This document shows positions 23,221 to 63,739 of a stretch of 64,000 nt of DNA, piece by piece. The stretch is from a virus (lineage: Duplodnaviria; Caudoviricetes), in the IMG/VR virus record IMGVR_UViG_3300031993_000016, one strand, 5' to 3'. The notes under the pieces were generated by a model. The model was not told where the DNA came from, made no database searches, and was given only the letters and a program-made list of their open reading frames with translations. Every line of letters starts with the position of its first letter. The stretch's first letter is position 1. Position numbers and translations under genes: made by a program.

Positions 23221-23700
23221 CTATTCCTCTATATCCCAACGCCATGAGTCAAAATTTTCTTCAAATGTAGCATCATTGCATATGGATACGTCTGCCGAAC
23301 CTCGCTTTGCATATATGATAGATGTGTTAGGATTATCTTGAATACATACTAAGATATTAGATCTTCTTACACCTACAAGTGAATCACCTGGTGATAATGA
23401 TAATGTTGTACCATCATCATATACAATGTAGTACCATTCGTCTTCTTCAACATAATCATCACTGTGATAATTGTATAGTCCATTTTTCTCTGCATAAGAA
23501 GCAGGCATCAACCACTTGCGTACCTCAGCTAATGACATCTTTTCAAATATACTGTATGTATCAGCTTCAAAAGCAGATTTGCCAGGTTTATCAAGCCATC
23601 TTGCGAAATCTGCGATTACAGCTGCGTTGTGAGCTTCCCATTCTTCTTTTGTCATATTCAAGTAGTTTGTCTCGATATCGGACTGGATGTATTTTTTCAT
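23221..23700 (-). CDS. MKRYI-tag protein (MKKYIQSD), acidic
   Basis: Shared N-terminal tag; RBS. Confidence 0.7.
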   Translation of the reverse strand: MKKYIQSDIETNYLNMTKEEWEAHNAAVIADFARWLDKPGKSAFEADTYSIFEKMSLAEVRKWLMPASYAEKNGLYNYHSDDYVEEDEWYYIVYDDGTTLSLSPGDSLVGVRRSNILVCIQDNPNTSIIYAKRGSADVSICNDATFEENFDSWRWDIEE

Positions 23701-23703
23701 ATA

Positions 23704-24009
23704 CTACACCTCTTTGAGCTGGTCTGTGACTGCTTTCTTGAACTGACGGTATGAGATTTCGCTGTCATCAGCTGCTCCTATGACTGTTCCGTCGTCATAC
23801 ATGTATCCTCCAAACATGTGGTCAACCATATATCTGATTTCATCACGGATGTCTGATGCTTCGTAATCGTTTACTTGACAGAATTCTTTGAAAGAATCGC
23901 ATTCCTGCTCTTTCATATCTTTTCTCCATTCATCTACTATGTCTTGAATTAGTTTCTGCATAGCAGGTGTGAATTGAGCTTCTTCAGCTGCCTTAATATA
24001 TCTTTTCAT
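23704..24009 (-). CDS. MKRYI-tag protein (MKRYIKAA), paralog of 25444..25737
   Basis: TPAMQKLIQD..EASDIR.EI.YMV shared with paralog. Confidence 0.75.
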   Translation of the reverse strand: MKRYIKAAEEAQFTPAMQKLIQDIVDEWRKDMKEQECDSFKEFCQVNDYEASDIRDEIRYMVDHMFGGYMYDDGTVIGAADDSEISYRQFKKAVTDQLKEV

Positions 24010-24074
24010 ATATCATGTCCTCCTGCATGTACTATAACGAATCTATAGAGATGCTATAGTACCTGCAACCTGAT

Positions 24075-24306
24075 TTAATTTAAAATATGTTTCGGATAGT
24101 AACTATCACCACGAAATAATGAGATAAACACAGTAGCCCTAAATTTTTCATCGAGGTCTACGTAACACCTAAAAAACAACAAGGTCCGATGATTTATCTA
24201 CAGTATATTCAATAACATGTGCAGCTAAATATCTTTCAAATACATCAGATTCATATGATCGAAGGTTTAAAGTCCACCAAAACTTTGTTGCATCAATTGA
24301 TCGCAT
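24075..24306 (-). pseudogene. Small gene broken by a 1-nt frameshift in a T6 run
   Basis: GGAGG RBS, MRSIDATKFWW...VVF*; removing one T at 24171-24176 extends to RCYVDLDEKFR...HILN*. Confidence 0.45.
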
Positions 24307-24425
24307 AGTAACTACACCTCCTTCGTGTATTATAACGAAGCTACAGATTTTTCTATAATTATCTGATCGCTTAGCTGTAACACATAAAATGAGTTCATAT
24401 GTAAAATTATCTTCTAATTTTCAAT

Positions 24426-25331
24426 CTATTCAGCTATATCATATCTATTTACATGCTGTTTAGCCCAATAGATTTTATAGATTTCATTGACAACTTCTCT
24501 TAGATCATACTGATTTAAGTGATTATCATCTGCCCACGCATATATATCGTCAATCTGCTTCTGAACATTAGGATCATTGTATCTAGTAGATCTGCGATTA
24601 TTAACAGATTTAGCTTCCACTTCTTGCTGTGCACTACTTAAATCATTTGCATATGTACTTAGTATAAATGTTTTTAGCTCTAACGCAGCATCTACTATGC
24701 TATCATCTGCATCATACGGATATGGTTTAGACGCTACTGCCTTATCTTTATGATACGACTTCAAATAATCATGAACCTTTTTCTCGGCTGCCTTTACAGT
24801 TTTAGGAAAGTATCTTCGAAGTTGTTCATCAATCTGACCTCCATGAACTAATATACGAAATAATCCATCTTTAGAAGGATAGAACTTATCATCCCCTACG
24901 GACGTAATTATGTCATAGTTCCTTATATAGATTGTATCCTCAAATATATGCCAATCGGAATTCAATGGATCAATATCATAGAAATCAAATACACACTGAC
25001 TTGCAGGGTCATGGACCATATTTAGAAAGATTTGAGTAACTGCGTGTATTAACTGTGTATCTGACGAATAACTTGAAGGGTCTATTTGTAGTTTAGATAG
25101 TTCTGTAGCCCATGTACCTACAAAATTGATATTCTGATTAGGCAACTCACCTACAAAATATTTTGTTTCTGGGCCGGAATCAAACTCGCAAGTTATGCAA
25201 AACACATGCATATCACCTATACACTCACCTACATCTTCAACTGTGCATTTAGTCGACGGCTTTCGACCAGCATAGTTGCGATTATATTCGCTTTCATATG
25301 TGAGCCTTGTAGATTTAATATATTTTTTCAT
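24426..25331 (-). CDS. MKRYI-tag protein (MKKYIKST)
   Basis: Tag plus internal TVKAAE. Confidence 0.75.
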   Translation of the reverse strand: MKKYIKSTRLTYESEYNRNYAGRKPSTKCTVEDVGECIGDMHVFCITCEFDSGPETKYFVGELPNQNINFVGTWATELSKLQIDPSSYSSDTQLIHAVTQIFLNMVHDPASQCVFDFYDIDPLNSDWHIFEDTIYIRNYDIITSVGDDKFYPSKDGLFRILVHGGQIDEQLRRYFPKTVKAAEKKVHDYLKSYHKDKAVASKPYPYDADDSIVDAALELKTFILSTYANDLSSAQQEVEAKSVNNRRSTRYNDPNVQKQIDDIYAWADDNHLNQYDLREVVNEIYKIYWAKQHVNRYDIAE

Positions 25332-25443
25332 GTAGTCTATCTCCTTTTATGACATATTATCTTACATATAACATAACAAATTTACCTACGAATTAGAGCG
25401 TGGATTTCATATATCTGTCCCCTGTCTATGTGCTATAACGAAG

Positions 25444-25737
25444 CTACAGAGCTGCAGTAACTTGCTTTTTGAATTCTCTGTAAGAGACTCCAGAACCATT
25501 TGAAGCTTCTACATATGATCCGTCATCAAACATTAAGCCACCATACATACGATTAACCATGTAATCAATTTCTTCACGTATGTCAGATGCTTCCCAATCA
25601 TTTGTCTGTACAAACTCTTTCCAGGTTTCGCACTCCATTTCTTTCATGCTCTTTTTGAAGTCATCGGCTACATCTTGGATGAGCTTCTGCATAGCAGGTG
25701 TTAAAGATTCGGTAGATGATTTGATATACCCTTTCAT
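25444..25737 (-). CDS. MKRYI-tag protein (MKGYIKSS), paralog of 23704..24009
   Basis: Clear similarity over full length. Confidence 0.75.
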   Translation of the reverse strand: MKGYIKSSTESLTPAMQKLIQDVADDFKKSMKEMECETWKEFVQTNDWEASDIREEIDYMVNRMYGGLMFDDGSYVEASNGSGVSYREFKKQVTAAL

Positions 25738-25749
25738 GATAACCTCCTA

Positions 25750-27120
25750 TCACCCTACGCCGAATGGATGAACGCTATCGCCATATCCATAAGAATCTTC
25801 ATAGAAGTATTTGCAACCGTTTTCAACTTGCTTTTCTGCTTCTGCTATAAGCCAATCAAGTTTGTAAGGACATCTAGAAAAATTCTCCCTCAATGCCGTA
25901 AGCAATTCTGGTGTAGCTGCTTCTAACAATTTCAATGCAAGTTTCTTTGTAGGGCACATTATAGCTACATCGGTCGGATACTTCTCCTCATATTGAAACC
26001 ATTTTTTAATGGCACTTACAGGGTTATCACATCTGAATGAAAGATCGTGTCCGCCATGTACGAGGTAATTATACTTACCATATGGTGACCAATCATCATC
26101 GTCCTCTTCATCAATATCTGTATCACTTGTAATGCCTTGAGGTGCTAATTCTCTGAGGTCGTAGTAATCAAGTTCATCAGTATTAAGTACACCATCTAAA
26201 CAGATGTATGTGCCCCAAGTACCTTTGTCGTTCTGACCTTCTTGTACTTCTAATACATTTAAGTCCTTTGGAATAGTACCAGGACCAATTCCGTGTGTTG
26301 TAAAGTACCAATACTTTCTTTCTTCATAGGGTCTTACGTCTGAATATCGGTTAATTTCACCGGCAGATTCAATTGGTAATGATTCAGAGCGGTCAAACAT
26401 GTCTGTATGTCCTACAACAGGACCAACATAGTCCTCAGGCCAGAAATGTAAGATGATTGTATCTCGTGTTGCAGTACCTTCGCATTCAAAGGTCAAGACA
26501 GGTTCTCCGCTTATACTATAACTGTCCGGGTCAGAAGAGTCTACTCGGATAATCTCAACTTCTGTTCCAAGATCACACTCAGCAGCATCTTCTGTAACCT
26601 TAACAATGTCGCCTACTTTCAGTTCATCAGCAGTAACTGCTCCAGGAGTACGATATGGATCTACCTTATACTTAGTAAATGTAGCAAGGTCAAAAGGCTT
26701 ACCATTTTCAATAGCCCAGTTAAGTTGATCCTCTTCACTGATAGATGAATGAATATAGTCGTCTGGTTCAGGTTCAATAGTTGACGCATCGATGAATTTG
26801 TCAGAACCGTGTCTTGCGATGTACTCACGTACATCTATCAAATTTGGATGTTCTTCGAGCCATTCATCTCTGAATTCAGTGTCACCTGCGAATTCATCTA
26901 TGACATCAATGATTTCACCGCCGTCATATTCTTCAGGATAGTCACGCTTAAGTATCTGGTCTGCATACCACCATTCGTCTTCACCATCAGGTACCCAAAC
27001 ACCACCTCCAGATTCTTTACCATCAAAAGTCACCCAGAGGATATTCCAATAGGTGTAACCTTCTGGGCGATCTTCCCAAGTATCATCAATGTAATCAGAA
27101 GAACTTATATATCGTTTCAT
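25750..27120 (-). CDS. MKRYI-tag acidic multidomain protein (MKRYISSS)
   Basis: Tag plus internal IDAS, IHSS, IESA, ITSD separating small domains. Confidence 0.8.
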   Translation of the reverse strand: MKRYISSSDYIDDTWEDRPEGYTYWNILWVTFDGKESGGGVWVPDGEDEWWYADQILKRDYPEEYDGGEIIDVIDEFAGDTEFRDEWLEEHPNLIDVREYIARHGSDKFIDASTIEPEPDDYIHSSISEEDQLNWAIENGKPFDLATFTKYKVDPYRTPGAVTADELKVGDIVKVTEDAAECDLGTEVEIIRVDSSDPDSYSISGEPVLTFECEGTATRDTIILHFWPEDYVGPVVGHTDMFDRSESLPIESAGEINRYSDVRPYEERKYWYFTTHGIGPGTIPKDLNVLEVQEGQNDKGTWGTYICLDGVLNTDELDYYDLRELAPQGITSDTDIDEEDDDDWSPYGKYNYLVHGGHDLSFRCDNPVSAIKKWFQYEEKYPTDVAIMCPTKKLALKLLEAATPELLTALRENFSRCPYKLDWLIAEAEKQVENGCKYFYEDSYGYGDSVHPFGVG

Positions 27121-27168
27121 AAGTCACCTCCATATGTAAAATAATGTCCTAACATTATGTAAGGTTCA

Positions 27169-27630: not shown

Positions 27631-27639
27631 TATACCTCC

Positions 27640-28071
27640 TTAGTATTCGAAATTATCTAATGCAGGATTACCAGTTAACTGAAACACTCTGTAATGAGGT
27701 TCTGTAATAACATCATATCGTTTGTTATCTATTTCAAATTCTTCAGCTATCTTGCTAATTAAATCAGCATCTGCAGCTACAGATTCGCTACAAATGATTT
27801 CATACACCTGAGCTCTGATGCTGTAAACAACTCTTCCTCGTTCAATGCATCCGAACCCTTTATTTACAATTGACTGAGCAGATTCAGGTAATTGATTCAT
27901 AACAACATCTCTCCACTCTGTCATATGATTCTTCGTATTGCTATACTGGATGTACCCTCTATCATCTACGCCATCATCAAGTGGAACGCATTTTCCAATT
28001 ATTTTATCTTCATATATCCACCATATACCAATTAGTCCGTCAGTATAGCTTGACTTAATGTATCTTTTCAT
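27640..28071 (-). CDS. MKRYI-tag protein (MKRYIKSS), paralog of 28079..28456
   Basis: Start moved to MKRYIKSS after GAGG RBS; G.WW..NH..W..RGRV. Confidence 0.75.
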   Translation of the reverse strand: MKRYIKSSYTDGLIGIWWIYEDKIIGKCVPLDDGVDDRGYIQYSNTKNHMTEWRDVVMNQLPESAQSIVNKGFGCIERGRVVYSIRAQVYEIICSESVAADADLISKIAEEFEIDNKRYDVITEPHYRVFQLTGNPALDNFEY

Positions 28072-28078
28072 ATTAACC

Positions 28079-28456: not shown

Positions 28457-28465
28457 GTGAACCTC

Positions 28466-35882: not shown

Positions 35883-36081
35883 CTCCCTCACCCCCCTCCT
35901 TTGCCTCTTCCATCTTATTCTTAAGCCATTCACCAACTCGGTCATGCACAAACATAAGGTCTAAAAATAATGCTATTGTTAATATCCAAGAGCTATTATA
36001 TTTGCAGATAAAATATGGAATTATAATTATTATGACCGAGATAATTGATGTTAATACTGCAATTAATATTCTCTTTATCAT
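35875..36081 (-). CDS. Small membrane protein (two TM helices)
   Basis: MIKRILIAVLTSIISVIIIIIP...WILTIALFLDLMF. Confidence 0.6.
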   Translation of the reverse strand: MIKRILIAVLTSIISVIIIIIPYFICKYNSSWILTIALFLDLMFVHDRVGEWLKNKMEEAKEGGEGDE

Positions 36082-36398
36082 TCCGCATCCCCCTCTCTGT
36101 ATGGTGATGGTAACTCTCGCCATGCTATAACGCCAAAGTCATTCCAGTCTGTTTCGCCCTCGTCATATATCCAAAACCAACTTGTATCGACTTCATACAT
36201 ACCACCGCTATACATCGTCACAAGATACTTTCCCTCTTCACTCGGAAGTCGTTCTGAACACGGAATCCACCGCTGTGATTCAAGTGCTTGGATTGCCGAT
36301 ACTAAGAATTGCCTAGCTTCTGACATCGGTTCATCTCCTCTACTCTCCAACGCTTTATCCCAATTAATTCCATATTGTATTAGTTCTTCATTCGTCAT
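36078..36398 (-). CDS. DUF551-domain protein
   Basis: MTNEE start; WIPCSERLP...VIAWRELPSPY. Confidence 0.75.
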   Translation of the reverse strand: MTNEELIQYGINWDKALESRGDEPMSEARQFLVSAIQALESQRWIPCSERLPSEEGKYLVTMYSGGMYEVDTSWFWIYDEGETDWNDFGVIAWRELPSPYREGDAE

Positions 36399-36403
36399 CT
36401 TCG

Positions 36404-36592
36404 TCACCCTCCTTTGTATGGGCTTGGTAACGGCATCCATGCAATTATATTTCTTTTCCAATGTTCTTCATCTTGTTTCCAAAAATACCTTGGATATACA
36501 ATCCTACTTTTCCCATCAGTACATATAGCTGTAACAATCACGTTCTCAGCATGTTTTGGTAATCTATCTTTCACTGAAATCCACTCACTCAT
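36404..36592 (-). CDS. DUF551-domain protein
   Basis: MSEWISVKDRLP...IIAWMPLPSPY. Confidence 0.75.
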   Translation of the reverse strand: MSEWISVKDRLPKHAENVIVTAICTDGKSRIVYPRYFWKQDEEHWKRNIIAWMPLPSPYKGG

Positions 36593-36770
36593 TCCGCTCA
36601 CCTCCAATTAGCTTAATAAACCACTCAAATGTCTCTTGACTGTTAAAGCTTGCTATCTTAGTTTCGCAATTCCCTTCGAGAATTGAGATAGTCGGCTTCT
36701 TGCGATAAGGCTTGAATGTGGAATCTGAAAACATAATCTTGTATTTACCCATATTGATTGAACATGTCAT
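36585..36770 (-). CDS. Hypothetical protein
   Basis: ATGA overlap with upstream gene; RBS inside junction repeat. Confidence 0.55.
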   Translation of the reverse strand: MTCSINMGKYKIMFSDSTFKPYRKKPTISILEGNCETKIASFNSQETFEWFIKLIGGERNE

Positions 36771-36955
36771 TCCGCATCCTCCTCTCTGTATGGTGCGTTC
36801 CACCAGCTGCCACGAAAACTTGTAACATCATCTAAATTTGTTATGGCGATATAATCATCTTCAGCTATCATACTATTTGGAAACACCGCCTTAATAACAT
36901 CGCCATTCGTCACAGTTCCACGCTTATCAATCATTATCTGTATTGTTTTTGTCAT
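36767..36955 (-). CDS. Hypothetical phage protein
   Basis: TNGDVIKAVFP...WWNAPY. Confidence 0.6.
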   Translation of the reverse strand: MTKTIQIMIDKRGTVTNGDVIKAVFPNSMIAEDDYIAITNLDDVTSFRGSWWNAPYREEDAE

Positions 36956-37103
36956 CTTGCTCCTCCTCTCTGAATGGCTGTGGTAACTCACGCCATGCTA
37001 TAACGCCATAGCCTAAATTAGTAGTATTATTTAATATCCTAATTGCTCGGTCTTTCTCTTCTATGAACATATTCATAGGAGCTTCTGTATCTTCATTCGT
37101 CAT
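36927..37103 (-). CDS. Chimeric MTNE-start protein ending in a DUF551 C-terminal tail, not in ORF track
   Basis: Manual translation MTNEDTEAPM...GYGVIAWRELPQPFREEE (58 aa). Confidence 0.5.
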   Translation of the reverse strand: MTNEDTEAPMNMFIEEKDRAIRILNNTTNLGYGVIAWRELPQPFREEEQDDKNNTDND

Positions 37104-37118
37104 TCGCTATCATTCCCT

Positions 37119-37319
37119 TCACATAAGCATCATATTTTTGCACAATAATTCTTCGTTTTTAAAAAATTTATTCTCAGCAAATCTTCCATATGGATTAGTC
37201 CATTTCAAATAAGTAAGGATTCCGCTTTTATATACTTTAATTACGTTATAGGCTAGTTCAGCAGAGTCATCATAAATCACATCATCTTCTTTTATTCGTG
37301 ATAATTCTTCATTCGTCAT
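37119..37319 (-). CDS. Hypothetical protein (MTNEE start)
   Basis: 66-aa ORF after junction repeat. Confidence 0.55.
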   Translation of the reverse strand: MTNEELSRIKEDDVIYDDSAELAYNVIKVYKSGILTYLKWTNPYGRFAENKFFKNEELLCKNMMLM

Positions 37320-37656
37320 TCCGCATCTTCCTCGCTTTCTGCCTTATATGGTTCTAATAGTGGCATCCATGCAATAACGTCAGCACAATCCCATTCTTTC
37401 TGTTTTTTTCCCTGTACACAGCCATGTTGGTTTCTATATAAACATCTCCAGAATAACTACCTTTCCATTTAGTAGTGACAAGGTAACAATCCTGCTTTTC
37501 TGGCAACCTCTCGGTAACTGGAATCCACCGCTGTGCTTCAAGGGCTTGGATTGCTATTGTTAAAGCTTCGTGTATTGATGCCCTGTAATCTGTCAATACA
37601 AAGACATCATTATCTCGTTGGTCTTTTAATAATAAGATTGCTTCTTCATTCGTCAT
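37316..37656 (-). pseudogene. DUF551 gene frameshifted at an A7 run
   Basis: Frame 0 has WIPVTERLP; the -1 frame after 37403-37409 gives KEWDCADVIAWMPLLEPYKAESEEDAE*. Confidence 0.65.
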
Positions 37657-37669
37657 CTTCGTTATCCTC

Positions 37670-38047
37670 CTATACATCAGCATATATTGCTATTACAGGT
37701 CTCCAGTATTTTTCATATTTCTGAAGCTCAGTCTCAACAAGTTTGTTCCATTCGTCATCAGAAATATATTCAACATCAATTTTGTTTCCGAGCATATATT
37801 CCAAATCCTCTTGAAATTCATCTCTATCTGAATATACTTTCGTTTCATCTACGTCCTGTTCACAATCAAGTATTTCACCTATTTTAAATTTAAGTTCTGG
37901 AGCATACCACCAACGATAATCATCATCCGTCGCAAACTCACTTCCAACTAATACTACTATTGGATAGTCTGGATGCTCTTTTATAAGCTCCTTTAATTCA
38001 TCTGTTTGCTTTGTAAACATATTTAATGGCTTGTATTCATTCGTCAT
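37670..38047 (-). CDS. Hypothetical acidic phage protein (MTNE start)
   Basis: ELKELIKEHPDYPIVVLV...W..VIAIY. Confidence 0.65.
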   Translation of the reverse strand: MTNEYKPLNMFTKQTDELKELIKEHPDYPIVVLVGSEFATDDDYRWWYAPELKFKIGEILDCEQDVDETKVYSDRDEFQEDLEYMLGNKIDVEYISDDEWNKLVETELQKYEKYWRPVIAIYADV

Positions 38048-41327: not shown

Positions 41328-43472
41328 CTATGATGAAAATCCCCAACCAATACCAATTGAACCTTCAGGTACATCTGTTATATTAGGTGCTGTGTTTGAG
41401 ATATACAACCGCATTGGGGCAGCTATTGGAGTACCGCTATAGCCTTGATAAGATGTTGTTGCATCATGCCATTCATAAACGTGGTCATAATAATCACCTG
41501 GAGTTTTTACACGATATACAAATCCGGGAAGCGGTGTAGATGCATTAGCAGCGGTAGGTGTTGAGAATGTAGATAACCATGTCTTAGAATACAACGTTGC
41601 GCCGGATACAATCCATGCATCTACACAATTAGTATTTGGACCGAATTCAAGATATGGGCCATAACTGTAATTATAAGTTAAGGTTTCTTTTGCTGATTTC
41701 AATCTCAGACCTAATATGTCGATGGCTCTGTTGTTTCTAAGAGCATTTAGTAATGCTGCCCAAGATAAATCATTATCCGAATTACCATGTGTAAGACGAA
41801 TAGGTGCAGTACCGATGTTGTTTTGATTAGACGGATTAGAAGAAATCTTCATACCTAATACATTTTGATTAAATTCACTTTCGCTTAAATCACGAAGCTG
41901 TGTATCTAATAGTAATGTAAGTGCTGATTGCTTGCCGACTTTTGTCTTAAATACTGTTGGTCTACCTGCACCTTCAAGTGTATCTTGATAGTTATTTGTT
42001 GCACTGATTCCAGGAGCTATGAATACTTGGTCAGAATAACTAGTTCCCGAATCAACTGCAGTATACATATCTGAATAAGTGTTTGAATAGTTGTATACGT
42101 AGAACTGCTCTACGTCAGCTACGTAGAATGAAGTGTACTGTGTCTTATCTGTGTATGCTTGTCCGACACCAGTTTGCACAATCATCTGAAGTCTGCCATC
42201 AGCTCCTCTACTTATTGCATGTGTACCAGGAAATGTAGCCTCATATTGGTATAATCCGTCACGTCCTTGATCACTCATCATTTTAATGGTACCCGGAGCC
42301 ACCACATCTAAAGGATTAAGGAAATGTGCACCAGTTGCATTGATGAATGTACCGTATAATGCTGGTGGGTATATTCCGTTTCTTTGATAAACTGTTAAAA
42401 CAGATTCGCCATCATCTGGAACAGTACCTAATGTAGAAAAATTAGTTACATCATATTGATATCTAGGATTATGCGGATTATCAGAAAATCTTTCCATTCT
42501 ATCTTGATAATATGAATCAGGATTGTAGAACGTTTCAGGTTTACTTGCTTGCATATCTATTACAGATATATCTTTGATACCTTTGTAGGTTGGATCTGCT
42601 ATCTGACCAGTCTCAGGGTCTATAGTAGATGCTGTAGGTGTTACAAGGCCACGTTCATATCCGCTAGTAGCAAAATATCCAATATAAGAATTAGGTACAC
42701 TGAATACAATTTTAGCTGCCCAAGGGAACACTGCAGGACCTAAGAAATCTCCATCAGATGGTGAATTAGTATCGAGTGTAGTATCTGTACCAGAAATACC
42801 TGCAAGTACAGATCTTATGCTAAATCCCGTGAGTAGTACTAATGGATTGCTGGTTATTTTACCTCGTACATGTAGACGAATGGTTGGGTATGAATTTGCA
42901 CCCAAATTAGCTTGGAAATCACTTTGAGGTGGTTGAAATTCTTGATCAGCTTCGCTCCATACACCTGGTTGTAATACAACGCCATCTACAATTTTCAAAT
43001 AATCTACTAACTGCTGCTTCTTAGTAGTATTCCAATCTTGTAATGTTTTTATAGGAACTTTGTTAGTATCTAAATTATCCGCAGATGTCATTTCACCATC
43101 CGGTGCATTTCCTGTACCTGCATAATTAGCAATCAAGCTTCCATAATCTGTAATGCGCGTTGCCCAGTTATTAACAAATACACTACTATCTACATCACCG
43201 TCAAAGAACTGAGCTACAATAGTATTTGCTGCAGCTAATCTAGATGTTGCAGGTAACTGTATCTGTAACATGGTATGACCATCATCGGCAAGTGATGGAT
43301 CAGTATTAGGTACTTTCAATAACATTGAACTACCATTAGTTAAACTTGAAGCTAACCATTCACGTTCTGTTGCAGGCGGCGTGTCTGGATCTTCGCTAAG
43401 ATGCTGTTTTACATATACCTCGTACGCAGAGAGCCCGCACACTCTACCTTCTGACCAAATTTCTTTAGGCAT
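41328..43472 (-). CDS. Probable virion structural protein
   Basis: G.SAYEV......TEREWLASS motif and C-terminal LYISNTAP...EGSIGIGW typical of phage fibre/head proteins. Confidence 0.6.
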   Translation of the reverse strand: MPKEIWSEGRVCGLSAYEVYVKQHLSEDPDTPPATEREWLASSLTNGSSMLLKVPNTDPSLADDGHTMLQIQLPATSRLAAANTIVAQFFDGDVDSSVFVNNWATRITDYGSLIANYAGTGNAPDGEMTSADNLDTNKVPIKTLQDWNTTKKQQLVDYLKIVDGVVLQPGVWSEADQEFQPPQSDFQANLGANSYPTIRLHVRGKITSNPLVLLTGFSIRSVLAGISGTDTTLDTNSPSDGDFLGPAVFPWAAKIVFSVPNSYIGYFATSGYERGLVTPTASTIDPETGQIADPTYKGIKDISVIDMQASKPETFYNPDSYYQDRMERFSDNPHNPRYQYDVTNFSTLGTVPDDGESVLTVYQRNGIYPPALYGTFINATGAHFLNPLDVVAPGTIKMMSDQGRDGLYQYEATFPGTHAISRGADGRLQMIVQTGVGQAYTDKTQYTSFYVADVEQFYVYNYSNTYSDMYTAVDSGTSYSDQVFIAPGISATNNYQDTLEGAGRPTVFKTKVGKQSALTLLLDTQLRDLSESEFNQNVLGMKISSNPSNQNNIGTAPIRLTHGNSDNDLSWAALLNALRNNRAIDILGLRLKSAKETLTYNYSYGPYLEFGPNTNCVDAWIVSGATLYSKTWLSTFSTPTAANASTPLPGFVYRVKTPGDYYDHVYEWHDATTSYQGYSGTPIAAPMRLYISNTAPNITDVPEGSIGIGWGFSS

Positions 43473-43483
43473 GGTATGTCCTC

Positions 43484-44290
43484 CTATTCATCTATCTTAA
43501 ATGTTAAGTCTTTAGCTTTTCGATTCTCTTTTATTGCAAGATTAATAGTTTCTACGTCCATATTATTATCTCTAGCAGCTGCGGATCGACTAGAATAATG
43601 AATATCTCGTTCAACACAATATATCTTAACTGCTCGTCCTTGAGATTTTATTCTCTGTCGTATTGCAGCATGAATTTTATTGCATCTGTCTACATCTACT
43701 ATATCATCTTTATGAAGTTGATAATAATCTTCGGATATGATATGAAACATCCAACCTCGCCCATTATGGGACCTCTTATGTTTATGAATATTATCATGTA
43801 TGCATTCAGATTTTATATATTTCTCTGCAGATTTAATAGATTCAAATATCTCACCTGTGTCATCACATTGAACACGAATTGCAACTACATCTGTTGCTTT
43901 GCATCCGTTTATTCTAGATTGTTCAGGATTAAATAAACCCGTAGCAATTGCATGTTGAGTATTATCTACATAAGTTATCCATTCTAAATTATCTATTGAA
44001 TTGTTTTGTTTATTTCCATCTATATGATTTACACAAGGTAGATTATTTGGATTAGGTAGGAACGTCATTGCTATTAATCTATGAACAGGATATGTTGTTT
44101 CTACACCAGATTTATTCAGTGTTATGTTGTAGTATCCTTGATTTTCAAATGGTGCACGAACAACACCTTTTCGAACATATACATATTTACCATGTTTAAC
44201 TTCCCTATCTAAGCTTCTTATCCTACCTTGATCAGAAGCTTGATAGTAGCTTTCATATCCTGGTATATCTGACCAAATTTCTTCAGGCAT
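43484..44290 (-). CDS. NUMOD4-HNH homing endonuclease with NUMOD1-like repeats
   Basis: EEIWSDIPGYE..YQAS..GRIRS; VHRLIA..F..CVNHIDGNKQNN.IDNLEW; start at MPEEIW after GAGG. Confidence 0.9.
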   Translation of the reverse strand: MPEEIWSDIPGYESYYQASDQGRIRSLDREVKHGKYVYVRKGVVRAPFENQGYYNITLNKSGVETTYPVHRLIAMTFLPNPNNLPCVNHIDGNKQNNSIDNLEWITYVDNTQHAIATGLFNPEQSRINGCKATDVVAIRVQCDDTGEIFESIKSAEKYIKSECIHDNIHKHKRSHNGRGWMFHIISEDYYQLHKDDIVDVDRCNKIHAAIRQRIKSQGRAVKIYCVERDIHYSSRSAAARDNNMDVETINLAIKENRKAKDLTFKIDE

Positions 44291-44417: not shown

Positions 44418-45575
44418 TTAAGAAACTACTGTCCAAGTTGCAATAGCTGCAGCCGCCGATCCATATGCATCATACGTGTTAGGTGCAATAGAACCAGAAA
44501 TTGCAGACACTTGTCCATTTGTTGTTGTTACAGATAGTGCTAATCCATCCGCACCCGCTGCTTGTGTTTCTGCATGTGCTGCGATATTTAATTTAGATGA
44601 TGTAACACCACCATCTACTAATACTGCAGATATTACATTATTTTGGTCAATAGTTAATTGAACTTGCGTAGCATTCTGTTCTGTGGTATATACATCTACA
44701 AGTGATTTAGCTGCAATGTACAATATATCATCTGTAGCATTTGCAATAACAAGTTTAATGTACTTACCAGCATCTGCAGAAGTTGCTGTGCCGCCAGCGC
44801 CTTTAATAAGTTCAGTTACATCGGTACCTGTAGTATTAAGTACATAGGTTGTATTAGATGTATCCCAATCATACATCTTATTCTGATATTCACCAGCAGT
44901 TGCTACTTTATACACTGTACCTTCTACAGGAGTTAATGGTTCACCACCATCTGTTAAAGACAACCATCCCGCAGATAATGCAGTAGCGCCATCAACAATG
45001 TAAGCTGTGGTGAATATAGATGCATCCCAAAGTTTATTGTTACTGTATGTAATGTCTACAACTGTACCCGATTCAACTACCATATCCTTTGGTATGTTGA
45101 TTTTAGCACCTACAGCTGTTGAACCTTGATAAAGCTGATATGTTGCAGAATATCCAGCATCTGGTGTACCCTCTCGTACAATAGTATATCCAGGTATTTC
45201 AATTGCATCACCTTCCGCAACACCATCTTTTAAAAGTTCATAAGTTGCAATACTACCAGCAGTTGGTGTTGATTTTTCTGTCATTGTGTAAGCTGCAGCG
45301 GCAGGCAAACTTGACATAGTAAGTGTAAGTGTATTAGTAGAAGAATCAAATTGTGCATTAGATACTACATTACCTGAACCTGTAATAACTACAGAAATCT
45401 GTGCATCTACTAATGCTTGTATTTCAGATGCATAATCTTTAGAAATAAGATCAGCACCTACATATATTTGCTTTTCATCTACCGCAAAATAGATAGTATT
45501 TGCATCTCTGACGGATGGTACTGTTTTGCCTGTAGGTACATAGCTAAATAGTACTCTGGAATCTGCAGAAGCCAT
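44418..45575 (-). CDS. Probable virion structural protein
   Basis: G.KINIPKDMVVESG..GKYIKLVIAN..LVDVYT; internal segment similar to 41328..43472 (A.IV.GAT..S..WLS...VY.V.T.G.Y). Confidence 0.6.
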   Translation of the reverse strand: MASADSRVLFSYVPTGKTVPSVRDANTIYFAVDEKQIYVGADLISKDYASEIQALVDAQISVVITGSGNVVSNAQFDSSTNTLTLTMSSLPAAAAYTMTEKSTPTAGSIATYELLKDGVAEGDAIEIPGYTIVREGTPDAGYSATYQLYQGSTAVGAKINIPKDMVVESGTVVDITYSNNKLWDASIFTTAYIVDGATALSAGWLSLTDGGEPLTPVEGTVYKVATAGEYQNKMYDWDTSNTTYVLNTTGTDVTELIKGAGGTATSADAGKYIKLVIANATDDILYIAAKSLVDVYTTEQNATQVQLTIDQNNVISAVLVDGGVTSSKLNIAAHAETQAAGADGLALSVTTTNGQVSAISGSIAPNTYDAYGSAAAAIATWTVVS

Positions 45576-56038: not shown

Positions 56039-57280
56039 TTAAGCTTCTGCATAAGAGAATCCGGATATTGCAGAGTCCCGATAATCCAATTTAGCATTTG
56101 CACGATCCGGATTGTATTCAATATCATAATCCTCTGGACCTTTACCCCAAATATCATGTTCTTCAAGTAAGCCAGTTATATTGTATTTTAATGATACTTT
56201 ACCGTATACTTTATAATTACCTGGATCTCGTGGCATCAGCGGTTCAAGTAAATCTGCAGTATCATCTACGATTGACATACTATCTACAATAGTAACACCA
56301 GGATATTCGTGGGATTCAGCATCAACTTCATCACCCCAATCTGGATATCTACCATCCTCCCGGAATTGAATAGAACCATCCTCTGTTACAATTACAAGTA
56401 TCCCGTCTAGATCGAACTCTATCCAATCCGTAAATTTAGGGATTTGTATTGCTTCATCAAAATCTTGATAAGGATCGTTCACACTAGTTATGGTTGTAGT
56501 AGCATATAAACTTGAATCATAATGTTCAAGAAATTCTTCTTTAAGTTTATCTACTACCTGCTCGGTGTATTTGGAAATATCCGTAGGTTTTTGAATACGT
56601 CGCATATCAATTATAACACTACAATCTAAATCAAGATCATGATTGCTTATCTGTATGTAGAATTGTTTTGGTGTGTCAAAATATGCATCTATTAACTCCC
56701 ATTTCGGGCCGTTATAATCTACATAAGGGCTAGTTAGTAATGTATTGAAATTAGTTAAAATATCGTCACACCATTCTAGCATCTCGTCTTTTGTAAAGAA
56801 CTCGTCATCATATTCACTCAACCAATCATTTGCTTGAATCGCTGTAGAATCCATTATATCATCGCTATATGATGGAAGTTGCTTCTTCAAGAAATCAAGT
56901 TCGTTATCTGATGCTTTATCATAATCAGGTATACCCATATCATCTGCAATAGAATCGATATACATTTGATTGCTGTGCCCTATACTATTGTACCAGCTAT
57001 AGAACTCATCTATATTGATATTACCAAATAATGCTCTACCAAGTTCTCTACTAAGCTTATGCGCATTAGATTCATGTTCGGTAATAGGTTGATATCCTAA
57101 TGCTTGTTCGTATGTAATAGAAAATGGTGGATAGTTTTGTTCACGATCTTGTGCAACCCATACACCTTTATCATCTACAATCTTTCTATATATGTCATAT
57201 TCGTTATCTGGGCTGGTCATCAGTGTGTATTCATCTAAATCAATAGCAGATGCTGTGATTTTAGATCGATGTATTTTCAT
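56039..57280 (-). CDS. Acidic multidomain protein, tag variant (MKIHRSKITASA)
   Basis: Very D/E-rich; internal IQAN, LYAT, ITSV. Confidence 0.7.
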   Translation of the reverse strand: MKIHRSKITASAIDLDEYTLMTSPDNEYDIYRKIVDDKGVWVAQDREQNYPPFSITYEQALGYQPITEHESNAHKLSRELGRALFGNINIDEFYSWYNSIGHSNQMYIDSIADDMGIPDYDKASDNELDFLKKQLPSYSDDIMDSTAIQANDWLSEYDDEFFTKDEMLEWCDDILTNFNTLLTSPYVDYNGPKWELIDAYFDTPKQFYIQISNHDLDLDCSVIIDMRRIQKPTDISKYTEQVVDKLKEEFLEHYDSSLYATTTITSVNDPYQDFDEAIQIPKFTDWIEFDLDGILVIVTEDGSIQFREDGRYPDWGDEVDAESHEYPGVTIVDSMSIVDDTADLLEPLMPRDPGNYKVYGKVSLKYNITGLLEEHDIWGKGPEDYDIEYNPDRANAKLDYRDSAISGFSYAEA

Positions 57281-57662: not shown

Positions 57663-57924
57663 AATTCCTCCTGAGATATTTGTGACATAGTTTCAACAAT
57701 TTGTTTATCTACTTCTGCAAAGATGCGGTCTGCAGCATCAAACGCTTCAGCATCTATTAACTCTTTTAATTTATAATAGCAGTTATAGCAACAGAAATGA
57801 CGCGTCCGCTTCTTATATACAAGTTTGTAAATGTTCCCAGGGCGTCTATAGTGTGATTTACCACAAGCGTCACAAATATATTTGTTAGTTTCCACTAACG
57901 ATTTACTCAACCGGATGTACCACC
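57659..57924 (-). CDS. Small Zn-finger protein (start uncertain)
   Basis: CDAC...FCCYNC. Confidence 0.5.
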
Positions 57925-58259
57925 CATCGTAGATATTGATCAGTTTCCTTTTCACACAGTGGACATACTCCCGAAATCTTTTCAACTATCTGATCAGATT
58001 CTACCATAGCTGAAATGAATATGCCATGACACTTTTCGCATTCTGCAATATAGTGATTATCAATATTGTTATCTGCTTCGATATCAACGTCATCTTCTTC
58101 GACTTCGTCTAATGTATCTTGCATGTCTTCAATACTATCTTGCATATCATCTAAAGTGTCATCAAATGTATCTGTGTCATCTACCATATCAAAATCGTCA
58201 AACCGCTCATCTTCGTCAGCAGCTACGATTCTAGCACCACGTCTAATATGTATTGACAT
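57903..58259 (-). CDS. Extremely acidic protein with C-terminal Zn ribbon
   Basis: RIVAAD then poly-D/E tract; CEKC..CPLC. Confidence 0.7.
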   Translation of the reverse strand: MSIHIRRGARIVAADEDERFDDFDMVDDTDTFDDTLDDMQDSIEDMQDTLDEVEEDDVDIEADNNIDNHYIAECEKCHGIFISAMVESDQIVEKISGVCPLCEKETDQYLRWVVHPVE

Positions 58260-58540: not shown

Positions 58541-58548
58541 GAACCTCC

Positions 58549-59460: not shown

Positions 59461-59470
59461 ATTCCCTCCT

Positions 59471-59728: not shown

Positions 59729-59773
59729 ATATGTTACCTCCTATATCGGTTATAACGATTTTAGTTGTATACA

Positions 59774-59813
59774 TGGAAATAGACGAATCGAGGGTGTATC
59801 TCAATTCGTCTAT
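59774..59813 (-). terminator. Probable intrinsic terminator after holin
   Basis: ATAGACGAAT.GAG/CTC.ATTCGTCTAT inverted repeat then TTCC. Confidence 0.5.
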
Positions 59814-59867
59814 CTCGAGGAGTGTTTGGTTATGAGTATCAAAGAGATCAAGCAAGGGATTGGATAC

Positions 59868-60248: not shown

Positions 60249-60261
60249 ACAACGTCACCTC

Positions 60262-60588
60262 CTATTTTAAATTTTCACCATTGGCAAATCGATTCCATTC
60301 ATCGGTAGTTAACTCTGTCAATGTATACTGATTGTTCCAATCACCTACCCATTCAAGAGCAAGTTCGGCAGCATCTTCCATGCCCCAATCATCTTCTTGA
60401 TTGTTGTCTATAATATACTGATAGAGGGCATCACGAAGTACATTCAAATCCTTCTTTGTATTTCTACAATCTTTAAGTCTATCAAGCACATCTTCTGGAA
60501 TATAATTGTCCCATGAGATTCTCTGCAAACTAAATTCAGTGTTTGTAGCTGTAATTTCAGTAGTTGCGGATTTAATATAACGTTTCAT
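60262..60588 (-). CDS. MKRYI-tag protein (MKRYIKSA)
   Basis: Tag followed by EITAT. Confidence 0.75.
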   Translation of the reverse strand: MKRYIKSATTEITATNTEFSLQRISWDNYIPEDVLDRLKDCRNTKKDLNVLRDALYQYIIDNNQEDDWGMEDAAELALEWVGDWNNQYTLTELTTDEWNRFANGENLK

Positions 60589-60939
60589 CTAGAAGTCCCC
60601 CTCATCATACTCTGAATTCAAATCTTGTTCGAATGGTCTACGAGACATTTCATTGACCCAAGCACCAAGCTTAACCCATCTTTCTAATATGTAGTAAATA
60701 GTTTTACCGATCAGCTCACTACTATCGAGGGTAGGAAACTCAATAACTGGTAGGAATGATGTATAATTAGTTTCACCATCGCTGTAAAGCTCAACTTCAA
60801 ATGTAATTGTTGGTGGATAATCACCATATTCGGAAATATCTGTAATTACGCCTAATGTCCCATGATTGTTATACACCTCTATCCCATATTCATAAGAGAT
60901 GTCGTTAATAGATTCTACGTATTCATCAAAACTACTCAT
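60589..60939 (-). CDS. Acidic hypothetical protein
   Basis: 116 aa, GGAGG RBS. Confidence 0.6.
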   Translation of the reverse strand: MSSFDEYVESINDISYEYGIEVYNNHGTLGVITDISEYGDYPPTITFEVELYSDGETNYTSFLPVIEFPTLDSSELIGKTIYYILERWVKLGAWVNEMSRRPFEQDLNSEYDEGDF

Positions 60940-61417
60940 CTAATAGATCCTCCACTTCTCCAGCATAGTCCAAATATTTTTTGCGACTATTAGGTACAGT
61001 CTTCAATTCTTTATATGGTATCGGCCATCTATCAAGCTTCTTTATGTTTAACGATTTTTGGCCATTATTTTCTAACTCAACTATATCTCGTATATCTAAT
61101 TTGAAAGCTCTTTTATATGATGCAAAGAGTATAATTATCCACCCATAACTGCCAGCAATTTTAGATTTCTTTAGTAATCCCTCTTTCTGATGTGGTTGTA
61201 TCATGCTGAAAGGGAAGTTATTTGACCAGGTTGCTTTTGATTCTATGTAGTAGATATTAGGATATTTATAGCAGACAAAATCACATATATTTCGGCTAGT
61301 TAGATAGTAACCAGATAATTGGTCATAGAACCTATCAAAAGAATATCCATCATCAGGTCTATCCAACCATTCCCATATTTTCTTTTCTGCGTCTTTACCT
61401 AATCTATCGTCACCCAT
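60932..61417 (-). CDS. recU: RecU-like Holliday junction resolvase
   Basis: GK..E..I, CDF, IESKAT...FPF..IQPHQ. Confidence 0.7.
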   Translation of the reverse strand: MGDDRLGKDAEKKIWEWLDRPDDGYSFDRFYDQLSGYYLTSRNICDFVCYKYPNIYYIESKATWSNNFPFSMIQPHQKEGLLKKSKIAGSYGWIIILFASYKRAFKLDIRDIVELENNGQKSLNIKKLDRWPIPYKELKTVPNSRKKYLDYAGEVEDLLDE

Positions 61418-61419
61418 GT

Positions 61420-62043
61420 TTACCTCAAATCTAAATTTTGACGTCGAAGTGCGGTGTTGACCCACGTTACAATTCGCTCATCTAAACTATCACGAATCTC
61501 TGCAAGAGCTTCTTCATAATAACGATGCATAATATACTCTGGTACATATATTGATACATCAGGATAACTGCGTTGAATATCAGATCTTCGATATGTATAT
61601 TTCTGCTCATTTTGTCGGATGAAATTTCGATGCAGGTCATCACCATAATCATTCAATTCATGGTCAGACACCCTTATGTGTATAAAACAGTAGATATCAC
61701 CTAGATTACTTAAATCGATATTAGTACGACCTCTTCGATGTAACGCATCCATGCTATTCTTTAAATTATAATAAGTATCAAAGTATATCGATGTACTATC
61801 TTGCCTATTAGATGTATAGCCTTTTTGTTTTACACCGTCATATGTATCTTCAATGACCTCAAATCCGTAATCATCTTCTAACATAGATAATATGTCTTGT
61901 TTAAATATATCAATTCCAGGAAATCTGGACGCAGTTGTTGCTACAATATATTTAGATATTGGAATATTAATATCAATAATTAATATATCATCAAATACTA
62001 TAGTATTATTCACATATGATGATGTTGTTACATATCGTTTCAT
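61420..62043 (-). CDS. MKRYI-tag variant (MKRYVTTS), paralog of 62815..63375
   Basis: IIDINI..IVAT; IRVSDH motif. Confidence 0.7.
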   Translation of the reverse strand: MKRYVTTSSYVNNTIVFDDILIIDINIPISKYIVATTASRFPGIDIFKQDILSMLEDDYGFEVIEDTYDGVKQKGYTSNRQDSTSIYFDTYYNLKNSMDALHRRGRTNIDLSNLGDIYCFIHIRVSDHELNDYGDDLHRNFIRQNEQKYTYRRSDIQRSYPDVSIYVPEYIMHRYYEEALAEIRDSLDERIVTWVNTALRRQNLDLR

Positions 62044-62072
62044 AGTTGTACCTCTTGTTAATATTTAAGGTT

Positions 62073-62339
62073 CTAACCATCAACTTGAGTTAATATTAGC
62101 TGTAATTCTTCCTTTGCAAGTGTCAACAGAAACAAGTCGCCTAAGTATAATGATATCTTATCACCATTTACAACAAATGAAAAATCTTCTTGATATGGTG
62201 GAAGATCTTCATCACATTCTGTAAGTAGATCACCAAACATGCTTACAGCACCTTCTTTGCAGAATATTGTACCTGAAGCATCTGCTACAATAGCGTAACC
62301 ATATTCCGATACAAGTTCTGATGTAATCAATTTATCCAT
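62073..62339 (-). CDS. Hypothetical protein
   Basis: 88 aa, GGAGG RBS. Confidence 0.6.
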   Translation of the reverse strand: MDKLITSELVSEYGYAIVADASGTIFCKEGAVSMFGDLLTECDEDLPPYQEDFSFVVNGDKISLYLGDLFLLTLAKEELQLILTQVDG

Positions 62340-62383
62340 TGAGAGTTCACCTCCTATAGAGATTATAGAAGGTTCGTTGTCAG

Positions 62384-62707
62384 CTATCTGGCTAGATAAT
62401 CTCGTATTTCAAGGATAGTAGGCCATCGCTTGTCCCATTCACACCATAAGAATTCTCTGTAGTAATCTGCATCAGATTTTGGATCACGCATATTATTTTC
62501 AGTTGCTGTAGCGTAGTATACAACCCTACCATCGAAATCTCGTACATATATATCAAGTTCTGCTTGAAATCCATTCTTTATACAGGCAGGTGTATAAGTA
62601 TAATGATGGAATTCATATGCAGATGTTCCATGGTCAATAGAAACTTTGCCCTTTCGAGTCATTATATCTAATCGAGCTTTTAAGCTTTCTGGTGTTCTTA
62701 GTCTCAT
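62384..62707 (-). CDS. Hypothetical protein
   Basis: 107 aa, GGAGG RBS. Confidence 0.65.
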   Translation of the reverse strand: MRLRTPESLKARLDIMTRKGKVSIDHGTSAYEFHHYTYTPACIKNGFQAELDIYVRDFDGRVVYYATATENNMRDPKSDADYYREFLWCEWDKRWPTILEIRDYLAR

Positions 62708-62733
62708 ATAGTTACCTCCCTATTTAAAATAAA

Positions 62734-62780
62734 TGACCTTTTCATCTACTATTAACGAAATTAGTAGACGAAAAGGTCAA
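62734..62780 (-). terminator. Terminator hairpin with class-1 promoter motif in its loop
   Basis: TGACCTTTTC.TCTACTA/TAGTAGA.GAAAAGGTCA then TTTATTTT on minus strand. Confidence 0.7.
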
Positions 62781-62814
62781 ATACATGTATGCAGTAAGGA
62801 TTTATAAATGTATG

Positions 62815-63375
62815 CTAATGTTTACGACGAGTCATTATATCTACTACTCGTTCGATAATAGCATCTACTTTCATGTATGCTTCTTCATAAGAGTCTACTT
62901 CTTCAGCATTGACAGTGATTATCTTTGTAATAGGGCGAGGTTTTTTACCTTGAGTAATCTGATTCAATGCGGCTTGTCGTTCTTTCTTGTGCTTTTGAGA
63001 ATTTTCACTTCTATGCGGTTCATGATTAGATATTCGTAAACTAAAATCAAAATCAAGAACAACATTCCCTTCACAGTCCTTTGCAAGCATACCAAAGTAA
63101 CAAGAATGATATGGTGATACATTTTTATAGTAGATTTCAAGATCATAATACTCTGTGCATAGATCTTCTACAGATTCAAGAAAGGCATCAAAATCAGCAA
63201 TTGCTTGAGAATCTAAGATTGCATCGGGTATGCCAGTAATAACAGGCCCATCTGGTATTGAAAATCCTTTATACTCTGCAGCTGCGACAGGTACTGGATC
63301 ATAATATTCTATTTCTACTACAATATCAATATGTACAGGTAATATAGAATCTGAAGTTTTTATATAAGTTTTCAT
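62815..63375 (-). CDS. MKRYI-tag variant (MKTYIKTS)
   Basis: HIDIVV..PVAAAE; LRISNH motif shared with 61420..62043. Confidence 0.7.
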   Translation of the reverse strand: MKTYIKTSDSILPVHIDIVVEIEYYDPVPVAAAEYKGFSIPDGPVITGIPDAILDSQAIADFDAFLESVEDLCTEYYDLEIYYKNVSPYHSCYFGMLAKDCEGNVVLDFDFSLRISNHEPHRSENSQKHKKERQAALNQITQGKKPRPITKIITVNAEEVDSYEEAYMKVDAIIERVVDIMTRRKH

Positions 63376-63398
63376 AATAACCTCCAAGTATAAAATGT

Positions 63399-63447
63399 AT
63401 TGACCTCTTCACCTACTATAACGAATCTAGTAGACAAAGAGGTCAAT
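63399..63447 (-). terminator. Terminator hairpin with class-1 promoter motif in its loop (paralog of 62734..62780)
   Basis: TTGACCTCTT..CTACTA/TAGTAG..AAGAGGTCAA. Confidence 0.7.
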
Positions 63448-63487
63448 GTTTAGAAGAAGATGTATTTGAAAGACGTTGTTCTTGTAG

Positions 63488-63739
63488 TTACTTCAGATCT
63501 ATTTTGATAGCCCTATACAGTTCTTGTAATATTTCAACAGCACTTGATAGATTCTCCAACTCATCATGAGAAATGTAATCAGGTAATTGATATTCATATT
63601 CCGCTCTATGAAATGAATCCATATAAGATAACAAATCTTCTAAAGAATTAGCAACTTGTTGACTACGTCTGCATATCTGCATTAATTCTTGTTTACCTTC
63701 AGATTGTATTGAACTAGCTGATGTAATTGCTATTTTCAT
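63488..63739 (-). CDS. Hypothetical protein, possible tag variant (MKIAITSAS)
   Basis: 83 aa, GGAGG RBS. Confidence 0.6.
   Translation of the reverse strand: MKIAITSASSIQSEGKQELMQICRRSQQVANSLEDLLSYMDSFHRAEYEYQLPDYISHDELENLSSAVEILQELYRAIKIDLK

Follow-up and report, generated by a model that had tools for sequence, protein, structure and literature searches.

An eight-residue N-terminal peptide shared by unrelated proteins of an uncultured phage: a candidate counterpart of the T4 capsid-targeting sequence

The closest described counterpart of the element analyzed here is the capsid-targeting sequence (CTS) of phage T4, a short N-terminal leader on the internal proteins Ip1-3 and on Alt that is removed by gp21 and provides the precedent for cargo of the prohead core (PMC3012670, PMC5694885). 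The internal proteins of T-even phages are injected anti-restriction proteins (PMC12373910, PMC3012670), namely, inhibitors of GmrSD restriction enzymes (PMC12373910). For phages of the phiKZ/SPN3US type, N-termini conserved among diverged paralogues have been likened to the CTS (PMC5694885); the Dar proteins of phage P1 are anti-restriction proteins that enter the head during morphogenesis and are delivered with the DNA (PMC9024508, PMC12810830); and the T4 protease has been reported to be homologous to the herpesvirus protease (Cheng et al. 2004, as quoted in PMC5694885). Here, we describe an 8-residue N-terminal tag with the consensus M-K-(R/K)-Y-I-K-(S/A)-(A/S) that is shared by otherwise unrelated proteins encoded in a stretch of DNA from a virus of the class Caudoviricetes (Duplodnaviria; IMG/VR record IMGVR_UViG_3300031993_000016). 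This whole stretch, hereafter the window, comprises 64,000 nt at 36.7% GC and about 95 genes, nearly all on the minus strand and preceded by strong GGAGG-type ribosome-binding sites.

An earlier note on this DNA had singled out 16 such starts, along with three looser variants, and interpreted them as a portable sorting tag that loads mostly acidic proteins into the head. All 16 starts proved to be real. Scanning the six-frame translation of the window with the strict pattern M[KV].Y[IVT].[SAT][SATD] gave 16 matches, all on the minus strand and all at the start of an open reading frame (ORF) behind a GGAGG-type ribosome-binding site, that is, 17% of the window genes (16 of ~95), against a chance expectation from amino-acid composition of about 0.01 (0.008-0.011) tagged starts in 95 ORFs. 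The core pattern without the Met had 17 matches, 16 of which are preceded by Met. Relatives of this phage are tagged as well: G002, G007 and G013, three genomes taken whole or nearly whole, carry 26, 9 and 4 strict tags, respectively. The tagged proteins of the window show no mutual similarity by BLASTP, with the exception of one pair of paralogues (starts at 24009 and 25737; 59% identity). All those listed below match the strict pattern, and none has a Pfam or PHROG family.

62815..63375, minus: MKTYIKTS, 186 aa; homologues in G002 and G007 are tagged too
61420..62043, minus: MKRYVTTS, 207 aa
60262..60588, minus: MKRYIKSA, 108 aa
38953..39279, minus: MKRYISAA, 108 aa
33136..33729, minus: MVKYIKAT, 197 aa
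32571..32750, minus: MKRYINAS, 59 aa
31810..32553, minus: MKRYTSST, 247 aa
31082..31615, minus: MKRYIKTA, 177 aa
30791..31063, minus: MKRYIKST, 90 aa
28079..28456, minus: MKKYIKAA, 125 aa; the orthologue in the close relative L001 begins MKRYIRAA
27640..28071, minus: MKRYIKSS followed by YTDGLIGIWW, 143 aa; the G007 homologue has another leader, MAKILIRTRVKKTPITSG, followed by YKTGLVSIWW
25750..27120, minus: MKRYISSS, 456 aa, multi-domain with a central RYSD domain; residues 1-13 predicted to be disordered
25444..25737, minus: MKGYIKSS, 97 aa; paralogue of 23704-24009
24426..25331, minus: MKKYIKST, 301 aa
23704..24009, minus: MKRYIKAA, 101 aa; paralogue of 25444..25737
23221..23700, minus: MKKYIQSD, 159 aa

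The tag is conserved as a peptide and not as DNA because synonymous codons vary and the upstream DNA shares only a Shine-Dalgarno sequence. Within the 16 tags, Arg is encoded by CGA (5), AGA (4) or CGT (1) and Ile by ATT (6), ATC (5) or ATA (3), with a similar spread for Ser, Ala and Thr; codon choice tracks genome usage and is freely variable, and in the 30 nt 5' of the tagged genes the Shine-Dalgarno sequence is the sole common feature. The earlier claim of protein-level conservation is therefore borne out, and the nucleotide-level alternative is not. When 55 tags from four genomes were pooled, the successive residues were M (55), K (50), R (40), Y (49), I (48), K (40), S or A (25 and 24) and A or S (23 and 21), and conservation ended after residue 8. 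The window itself provides a contrasting case. Five small genes at 36078-38047 (minus strand; starts at 38047, 37656, 37319, 37103 and 36398) begin with MTNE(E/Y/D), encoded by the identical codons ATG ACG AAT GAA, including the rare Thr codon ACG; the DNA upstream of these genes is conserved (..GACGAAG or ..GCGGA), and the genes that precede them end in similar W.(P/E)LP.P(Y/F) tails. Given the identical codons and conserved upstream DNA, the MTNEE start is a nucleotide-level repeat, unlike MKRYIK, and these genes probably form a recombining cassette array.

The tag does not resemble an export signal, as had been noted for Sec: it lacks a hydrophobic core, a twin-Arg pair and a lipobox Cys, and its eight residues are polar or basic and give way to an acidic sequence that varies. 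Its reported absence from tail and replication genes also holds, in that none of the tail, lysis, helicase or SbcC-like genes of the window is tagged; the capsid protein and other presumably abundant proteins are likewise without it. The tagged proteins are indeed more acidic than the untagged ones, with median pI values of 4.47 versus 4.99 in the window (p=0.011) and 4.56 versus 5.24 in G002 (p=0.001).

The three looser variants are present as well, ending in ITSA, ITAS and IVAA:

63488..63739, minus: leader MKIA-ITSA, 83 aa; ends in the motif [IV]-[KT]-[AS]-[AST] that forms the second half of the tag
56039..57280, minus: basic leader MKIHRSK-ITAS-A, 413 aa; very acidic body
57903..58259, minus: basic leader MSIHIRRGAR-IVAA-D, 118 aa; very acidic body

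A leader swap is seen in one pair of homologous bodies: the window protein at 27640..28071 reads MKRY-IKSS|YTDGLIGIWW and its G007 homologue MAKILIRTRVKKTP-ITSG|YKTGLVSIWW. Both leaders end in the motif immediately before the conserved body, and MAKILIRTRVKKTP-ITSG resembles the basic N-terminus of the capsid protein itself. The three looser leaders of the window fit a second leader class of the kind seen in this swap.

Comparison with the relatives shows that the tag is stable while the cargo turns over almost completely. The genome of G002 (162.8 kb, with terminal repeats) has its 26 strict tags among 214 genes, or, by a narrower strict pattern, 24 strict tags and 8 looser leaders; its DNA identity to the window is only 65-70% and is confined to structural genes. 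G007 is 183.6 kb long, with 41.7% GC. The strict-tag load ranges from 4 to 26 per sampled relative (2-12% of the genes) versus 17% of the genes in the window. Homologues in G002, G007 or G013 were found for 2 of the 16 tagged proteins of the window, compared with 14 of the 18 structural proteins, and the untagged non-structural genes also turn over quickly (13 of 53 kept). In L001, orthologues keep the tag, with substitutions inside it. Homologues of the 456-aa protein reside on contigs of 117-182 kb, the closest ones coming from bovine metagenomes, and many of them begin with MKRYIKA, MKRYIRS or MKRYIKSN.

On a broader scale, a back-translated tag pattern matched 57 stretches in a collection of viral contigs, with many copies on each of several large contigs. 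The same pattern in a much larger cellular collection gave 57 listed stretches, all of them single matches in unrelated taxa and, by a rough estimate from base frequencies, consistent with chance. Within the viral set, the tag tracks the T4-type head: Gp23 is present in all eight genomes with at least 2 exact MKRYIK matches, these genomes being mutually related, so that the linkage holds inside one clade and does not amount to independent replication. Four tag-bearing records without Gp23 have one exact match each, and the reversed pattern, used as a control, had zero matches. A negative contrast comes from the distant relative G001/L005: its 21 kb that were examined are free of tags, and it has neither an exact-pattern match anywhere in its genome nor a Gp23 match.

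Two genes in close relatives are recorded here in passing. A tagged-like 106-aa protein (MKKYVKGN..) is encoded at L011:10893-11213 in a structural module, between tail-fibre-like and head genes, and an IS605 OrfB/TnpB (Cas12f-like) gene at L001:4360-5619 lies within the region syntenic to the tagged-gene block of the window.

The likeness to T4 capsid targeting that had been suggested from the tags turned out to be stronger than could have been known from the window, extending to a gp21-family protease, a gp23-type capsid protein, a T4-type portal and a shared motif. In the gene table of the window's own contig, a 484-aa protein with a weak match to Peptidase_S77 is followed by a 488-aa Gp23-family protein, ~4-7 kb beyond the low end of the window. 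In a close relative, whose head module was read by walking along its scaffold, both families pass the Pfam cut-offs (32.9 bits versus 27 for S77 and 66.3 versus 24.4 for Gp23), and BLASTP aligns the protease with T4 gp21 over a stretch of 187 residues at 26% identity (E=3e-7) that keeps both the LGHP and the G(I/V)S.RG motif. A T4-type portal (PF07230) was found in all four relatives tested. The capsid protein matched neither T4 gp23 by BLASTP nor the PDB sequences by phmmer, and its relation to gp23 is at the profile level only. A coiled-coil tail of ~330 residues follows the protease domain in the same protein (L011:16244-17698; orthologues at L081:15532-16989, L104:3852-5213 and L095:497-1942), an arrangement that looks like a gene 21/22-type fusion. 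The junction of the protease domain and the tail is marked by an invariant PxFTEIAAST, in which IAAS falls exactly at the junction, and the conserved, acidic C-terminus of the tail ends in L(V/A/I)T(L/V).

This head module repeats the second half of the tag, [IV]-[KT]-[AS]-[AST], at three places: the N-terminal region of the capsid protein, the protease-tail junction and the protease tails. The tails of the four protease orthologues (43-48% identical) contain 5, 4, 4 and 2 copies of [IV][KTS]A[AS], compared with means of 0.17-0.26 in composition-preserving shuffles; for three orthologues, 0 shuffles reached the observed number, and for the fourth, p=0.023. In the complete genome of G002, the protease is the top outlier for the motif among 214 proteins (P=8.5e-5); in the window proteome, the background is 0.02 per 100 residues. 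In the capsid protein, the motif takes the form [IV](T/M)(A/G)A (ITAA, VTAA or IMGA) and is kept across the relatives directly before TNT.NI.ARPDF.ELLP, with two more conserved copies upstream. It lies ~5 residues before the extrapolated position 1 of the Gp23 profile; the T4 cuts lie 22 (gp23) and ~7 (gp24) residues before that position. The actual T4 sequences served as a control: the CTS of both ipII and ipIII reads MKTYQEF-IAE, in ipI, ITE occupies residues 17-19, the cut in gp23 is at LTE65, and 14 [LI]xE sites occur in gp22. Judged from these sequences, T4 follows the same three-way logic, in which the leader end, the gp23 boundary and the gp22 sites coincide in type.

On balance, we consider it probable, with considerable room for doubt, that the tag is the equivalent of a removable CTS, containing an S77 prohead-protease site and loading cargo into the head. 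Under this model, the 8 residues would act as a short removable leader comparable to that of the T4 internal proteins, with (Y)-[IV]-[KT]-[AS]-[AST] as the substrate site of the gp21-family (Peptidase S77) prohead protease. The protease would prefer a small residue at the cut, in a hydrophobic-x-small-small context, instead of the Glu of T4, and the cut would presumably come after residue 7 or 8. The leader would mark those proteins that occupy the prohead core at the moment of protease activation: they would be recruited to the assembling core, trimmed there, kept in the head and probably delivered along with the DNA, whereas the MKRY half may add docking or translation efficiency. The direct support comes from the tag itself, its peptide-level conservation and portability, its restriction to T4-type heads and the recurrence of its motif at the capsid boundary and in the protease tail. 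Cleavage, the exact position of the cut, encapsidation, injection and an anti-defence role are predictions of the model. Accepted in part, then, is the notion of a portable sorting tag: portability, conservation as a peptide and presence on unrelated, rapidly replaced acidic proteins stand, and sorting itself is suggested by the analogy to T4.

A more specific version of this scenario is possible, and we put it forward tentatively. In a lineage of large uncultured phages, probably with Gram-positive hosts, the 8-residue address would double as an assemblin-like site, Y-I-K-A|S, for a gp21-family protease-scaffold fusion. It would load a fast-evolving set of proteins, from up to ~12-17% of the genes, into the capsid, to be injected ready-made for counter-defence together with the DNA. 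The lysis genes and ribosome-binding sites of the phage are of the Gram-positive type, and the host is probably a Gram-positive rumen anaerobe. If correct, no capsid-cargo system described so far would be larger or more compact, and the specificities of S77 proteases and assemblins would be linked.

Several observations weigh against the leader model. Cleavage and location in the virion are predicted from sequence. The [IV]-[KT]-[AS]-[AST] motif was chosen post hoc from the data, yet replicated in 3 more genomes, and the head-protein sequences analyzed are those of relatives, the window's own contig having contributed its gene table alone. There is no co-variation between leader and capsid site in G007 and G013, where the tag is unchanged and the capsid site reads IMGA. 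The internal proteins of T4 are basic and the tagged cargo is acidic, and the MK.YI half of the tag resembles a translation-enhancing N-terminal motif (PMC6920384). Expression timing is a further difficulty. A motif, (A/T)TCGTTATA(G)T, with 26 matches on the gene strand of the window versus 1 on the other strand, is typically located 30-60 nt 5' of starts in the non-structural half (on the minus strand, for example, at 63424, 62758, 59758, 56007, 50613, 50257, 47631, 38901, 38879, 30637, 25441, 24338 and 24040). The lack of a consistent -35 element with this motif points to a promoter class specific to the phage. The motif is found before tagged genes, before untagged genes of the non-structural kind and before a cluster of tRNA and non-coding RNA genes and is absent before tail and head genes, so that late co-expression of the tagged genes with proheads, as far as can be told from such a putative promoter, is not evident.

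The resemblance to a translation-enhancing motif has to be weighed as an explanation in its own right. Gene starts rich in A are generally favourable to translation, and the first codons of the tagged genes (Lys, Arg/Lys, Tyr, Ile, Lys) could have been selected for early elongation and yield, with no role in sorting. K|N-Y|I at codons 3-5 lifts the yield of an E. coli reporter whatever the synonymous codon (PMC6920384), and four of the 16 window tags read MKKY. However, codon 3 mostly encodes Arg instead of Lys or Asn; the small residues at positions 7-8, the abrupt stop of conservation after residue 8, the alternative basic leaders with the same motif end and the enrichment of the motif in the capsid propeptide and protease tail are all left unexplained; and there is no tag on the capsid protein, the tail proteins or others that are presumably abundant. 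We therefore regard this explanation of the whole tag as improbable, although the MK.YI half may contribute to translation. The N-termini could also be relics, functionless now, of one 5' gene end that was duplicated and spread, through common descent or the recombination of cassettes, a process for which the five MTNEE genes of the same window, with their identical codons and conserved upstream DNA, offer an actual example. The freely differing codons and unconserved upstream DNA of the MKRYIK genes largely refute this possibility, which we judge hardly credible: the tag persists across genomes at 65-70% DNA identity of the structural genes, with 2 of the 16 cargo proteins shared, and such retention of the tag while the cargo is replaced requires purifying selection on the peptide.

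Two other alternatives grant the peptide a function outside cargo loading. The tag could be recognized by a partner unrelated to the capsid, such as a phage modifying enzyme, a chaperone, an export route or another compartment. This would accommodate the MKRY half, which the protease-site model leaves unexplained and which is absent from the N-termini of the capsid protein and protease, as well as the promoter class that the cargo genes share with non-structural genes. We nevertheless find it unlikely, given that no candidate partner was identified, that the tag has no Sec, Tat or lipoprotein features, and that it predicts neither a motif in common with the capsid propeptide and protease tail nor a restriction to Gp23 genomes. 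Alternatively, the tag could be a protease site with no loading role, serving trimming or activation outside the head, or making the tagged proteins decoys or regulators of the protease. The motif evidence indeed concerns recognition by the protease and not location, and the early/middle-like promoter association fits. Against this, the published description of prohead proteases of the T4 family places their action on core and shell proteins within the assembled prohead (PMC5694885), and the equivalent T4 leader suffices to encapsidate foreign proteins (PMC3012670, PMC5694885); we give this alternative, too, little credence.

What the leader-bearing proteins might do is less apparent. The proposal that they include anti-defence effectors is partly sustained, by two hints, and partly not, there being no recognisable ArdA or SAM-lyase domain, or other anti-restriction domain, in the tagged proteins of the window as searched against Pfam and PHROG. 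The first hint is a tagged 212-aa protein of G007 (L094:11056-11694; MKRYIKSSEG..) that matches the S-AdoMet lyase family (32.6 bits versus a cut-off of 28), the enzyme class of the anti-restriction SAMase of phage T3. This protein would be a candidate packaged SAM-degrading anti-restriction enzyme. Another tagged protein of G007 is a BspA-type LRR protein. The second hint comes from the 456-aa protein of the window. Its residues ~255-330 form a conserved ~75-residue domain, RYSDxxPYExRKYWYFTTHGxGPGTIPKDL, without a Pfam family, and the RYSD..YWYFTTHGxGPG domain is found in many multi-domain proteins of phages and mobile elements (P0015-P0057), several of which are fused to ArdA. In the AlphaFold model of the 456-aa protein (mean pLDDT 72), disordered residues 1-13 are followed by several confident domains on flexible linkers; a Foldseek search of PDB with this model gave a weak, generic small beta-barrel match for one ~75-residue domain. 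An Atlas search with the 301-aa cargo protein returned nothing informative. The sequences ..VKAA|RYSD (internal, P0035) and MKIRYRKAVKAA|RYSD (N-terminal, P0037) were considered as polyprotein cleavage sites and were not used as evidence because many homologues have I-(K/N/T)-RYSD there, so that these residues may belong to the domain.

Elsewhere in the window, two large genes, at 44418-45575 and 41328-43472, resemble each other over a segment of 95 residues and flank an HNH endonuclease gene (43484-44290), which could be a homing endonuclease inserted between paralogues or between the parts of a split gene. HNH endonuclease fragments were also the only matches when deposited phage DNA was searched with the window, which has no close phage there. 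A search for related loci with a 129-aa protein gave no match. In the literature, our search found no publication on the MKRYIK tag, the tag string retrieving only unrelated signal-peptide papers.

Among the known systems, that of T4 is the one to which the present locus is most readily compared. In both, a short N-terminal leader is the sole likeness among unrelated accessory proteins and ends in a motif that recurs where the capsid propeptide ends and is repeated in the scaffold; the two systems have the S77 protease, Gp23 capsid and portal families in common, and both leaders begin with M-K-x-Y. Beyond M-K-x-Y, MKTYQEFIAE of T4 is not matched here, and there is no Glu at the end of the motif, so the element appears to be an analogue or variant rather than the same leader. 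Thus, what had been announced as a candidate new system is instead a variant of the CTS/internal-protein principle of T4. The leader has 8 residues here versus 10-19 in T4, the putative site is [IV]-x-[AS]-[AST] versus (I/L)-x-Glu, and the number of strict tagged genes is 4-26 per sampled relative, compared with three such proteins in T4 and at least 10 types across the T-evens. Unlike in T4, the protease is fused to a scaffold-like tail, and the phage of the window is otherwise not T4-like, most of its tail and replication proteins having no T4 or PHROG match.

Should the model be confirmed, capsid targeting as in T4 would be a general route by which phages with gp21/gp23-type heads deliver proteins made in advance, re-invented or anciently inherited, and not a peculiarity of the T-evens. 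The leader would then be a sequence handle for dozens of candidate injected counter-defence proteins per uncultured phage genome, nearly all of them without a family, and a compact 8-residue candidate tag for loading foreign proteins into capsids, a use that the T4 CTS already serves.

The remaining comparisons are with more distant systems. In phiKZ/SPN3US, a gp21-related protease likewise processes many inner-head and ejection proteins at a common motif; most propeptides there exceed 100 residues, cleavage follows an (S/A/G)-x-Glu motif and the proteins number ~8, whereas here 8 residues are found on dozens of unrelated small proteins. The Dar proteins of P1 belong to a head lineage different from the T4-type head described here, and, to our knowledge, they have neither a short cleavable leader nor a protease motif in common. 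In herpesviruses, the assemblin precursor (pUL26, with its R- and M-sites) combines, as here, a protease and a scaffold-like C-terminal region in one polypeptide, and the invariant IAAS at the junction would be the candidate release site. Herpesviruses are not known to place such sites at the N-termini of numerous cargo proteins for loading. The assemblin sites YLQA-T and VQA-S (PMC4498786) fit the pattern of a hydrophobic residue, any residue and Ala followed by Ser, Thr or Ala, and the Tyr of the tag, at P4, matches that of YLQA-T; motif statistics thus hint at an assemblin-like specificity. If real, a small-residue S77 protease-scaffold fusion would provide a functional link to the proposed common origin of the phage and herpesvirus maturation proteases. 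The principle is the one known from T4; what appears to be new is the sequence of the leader, the putative specificity for small residues, the fusion of protease and scaffold, the scale and the phage lineage.

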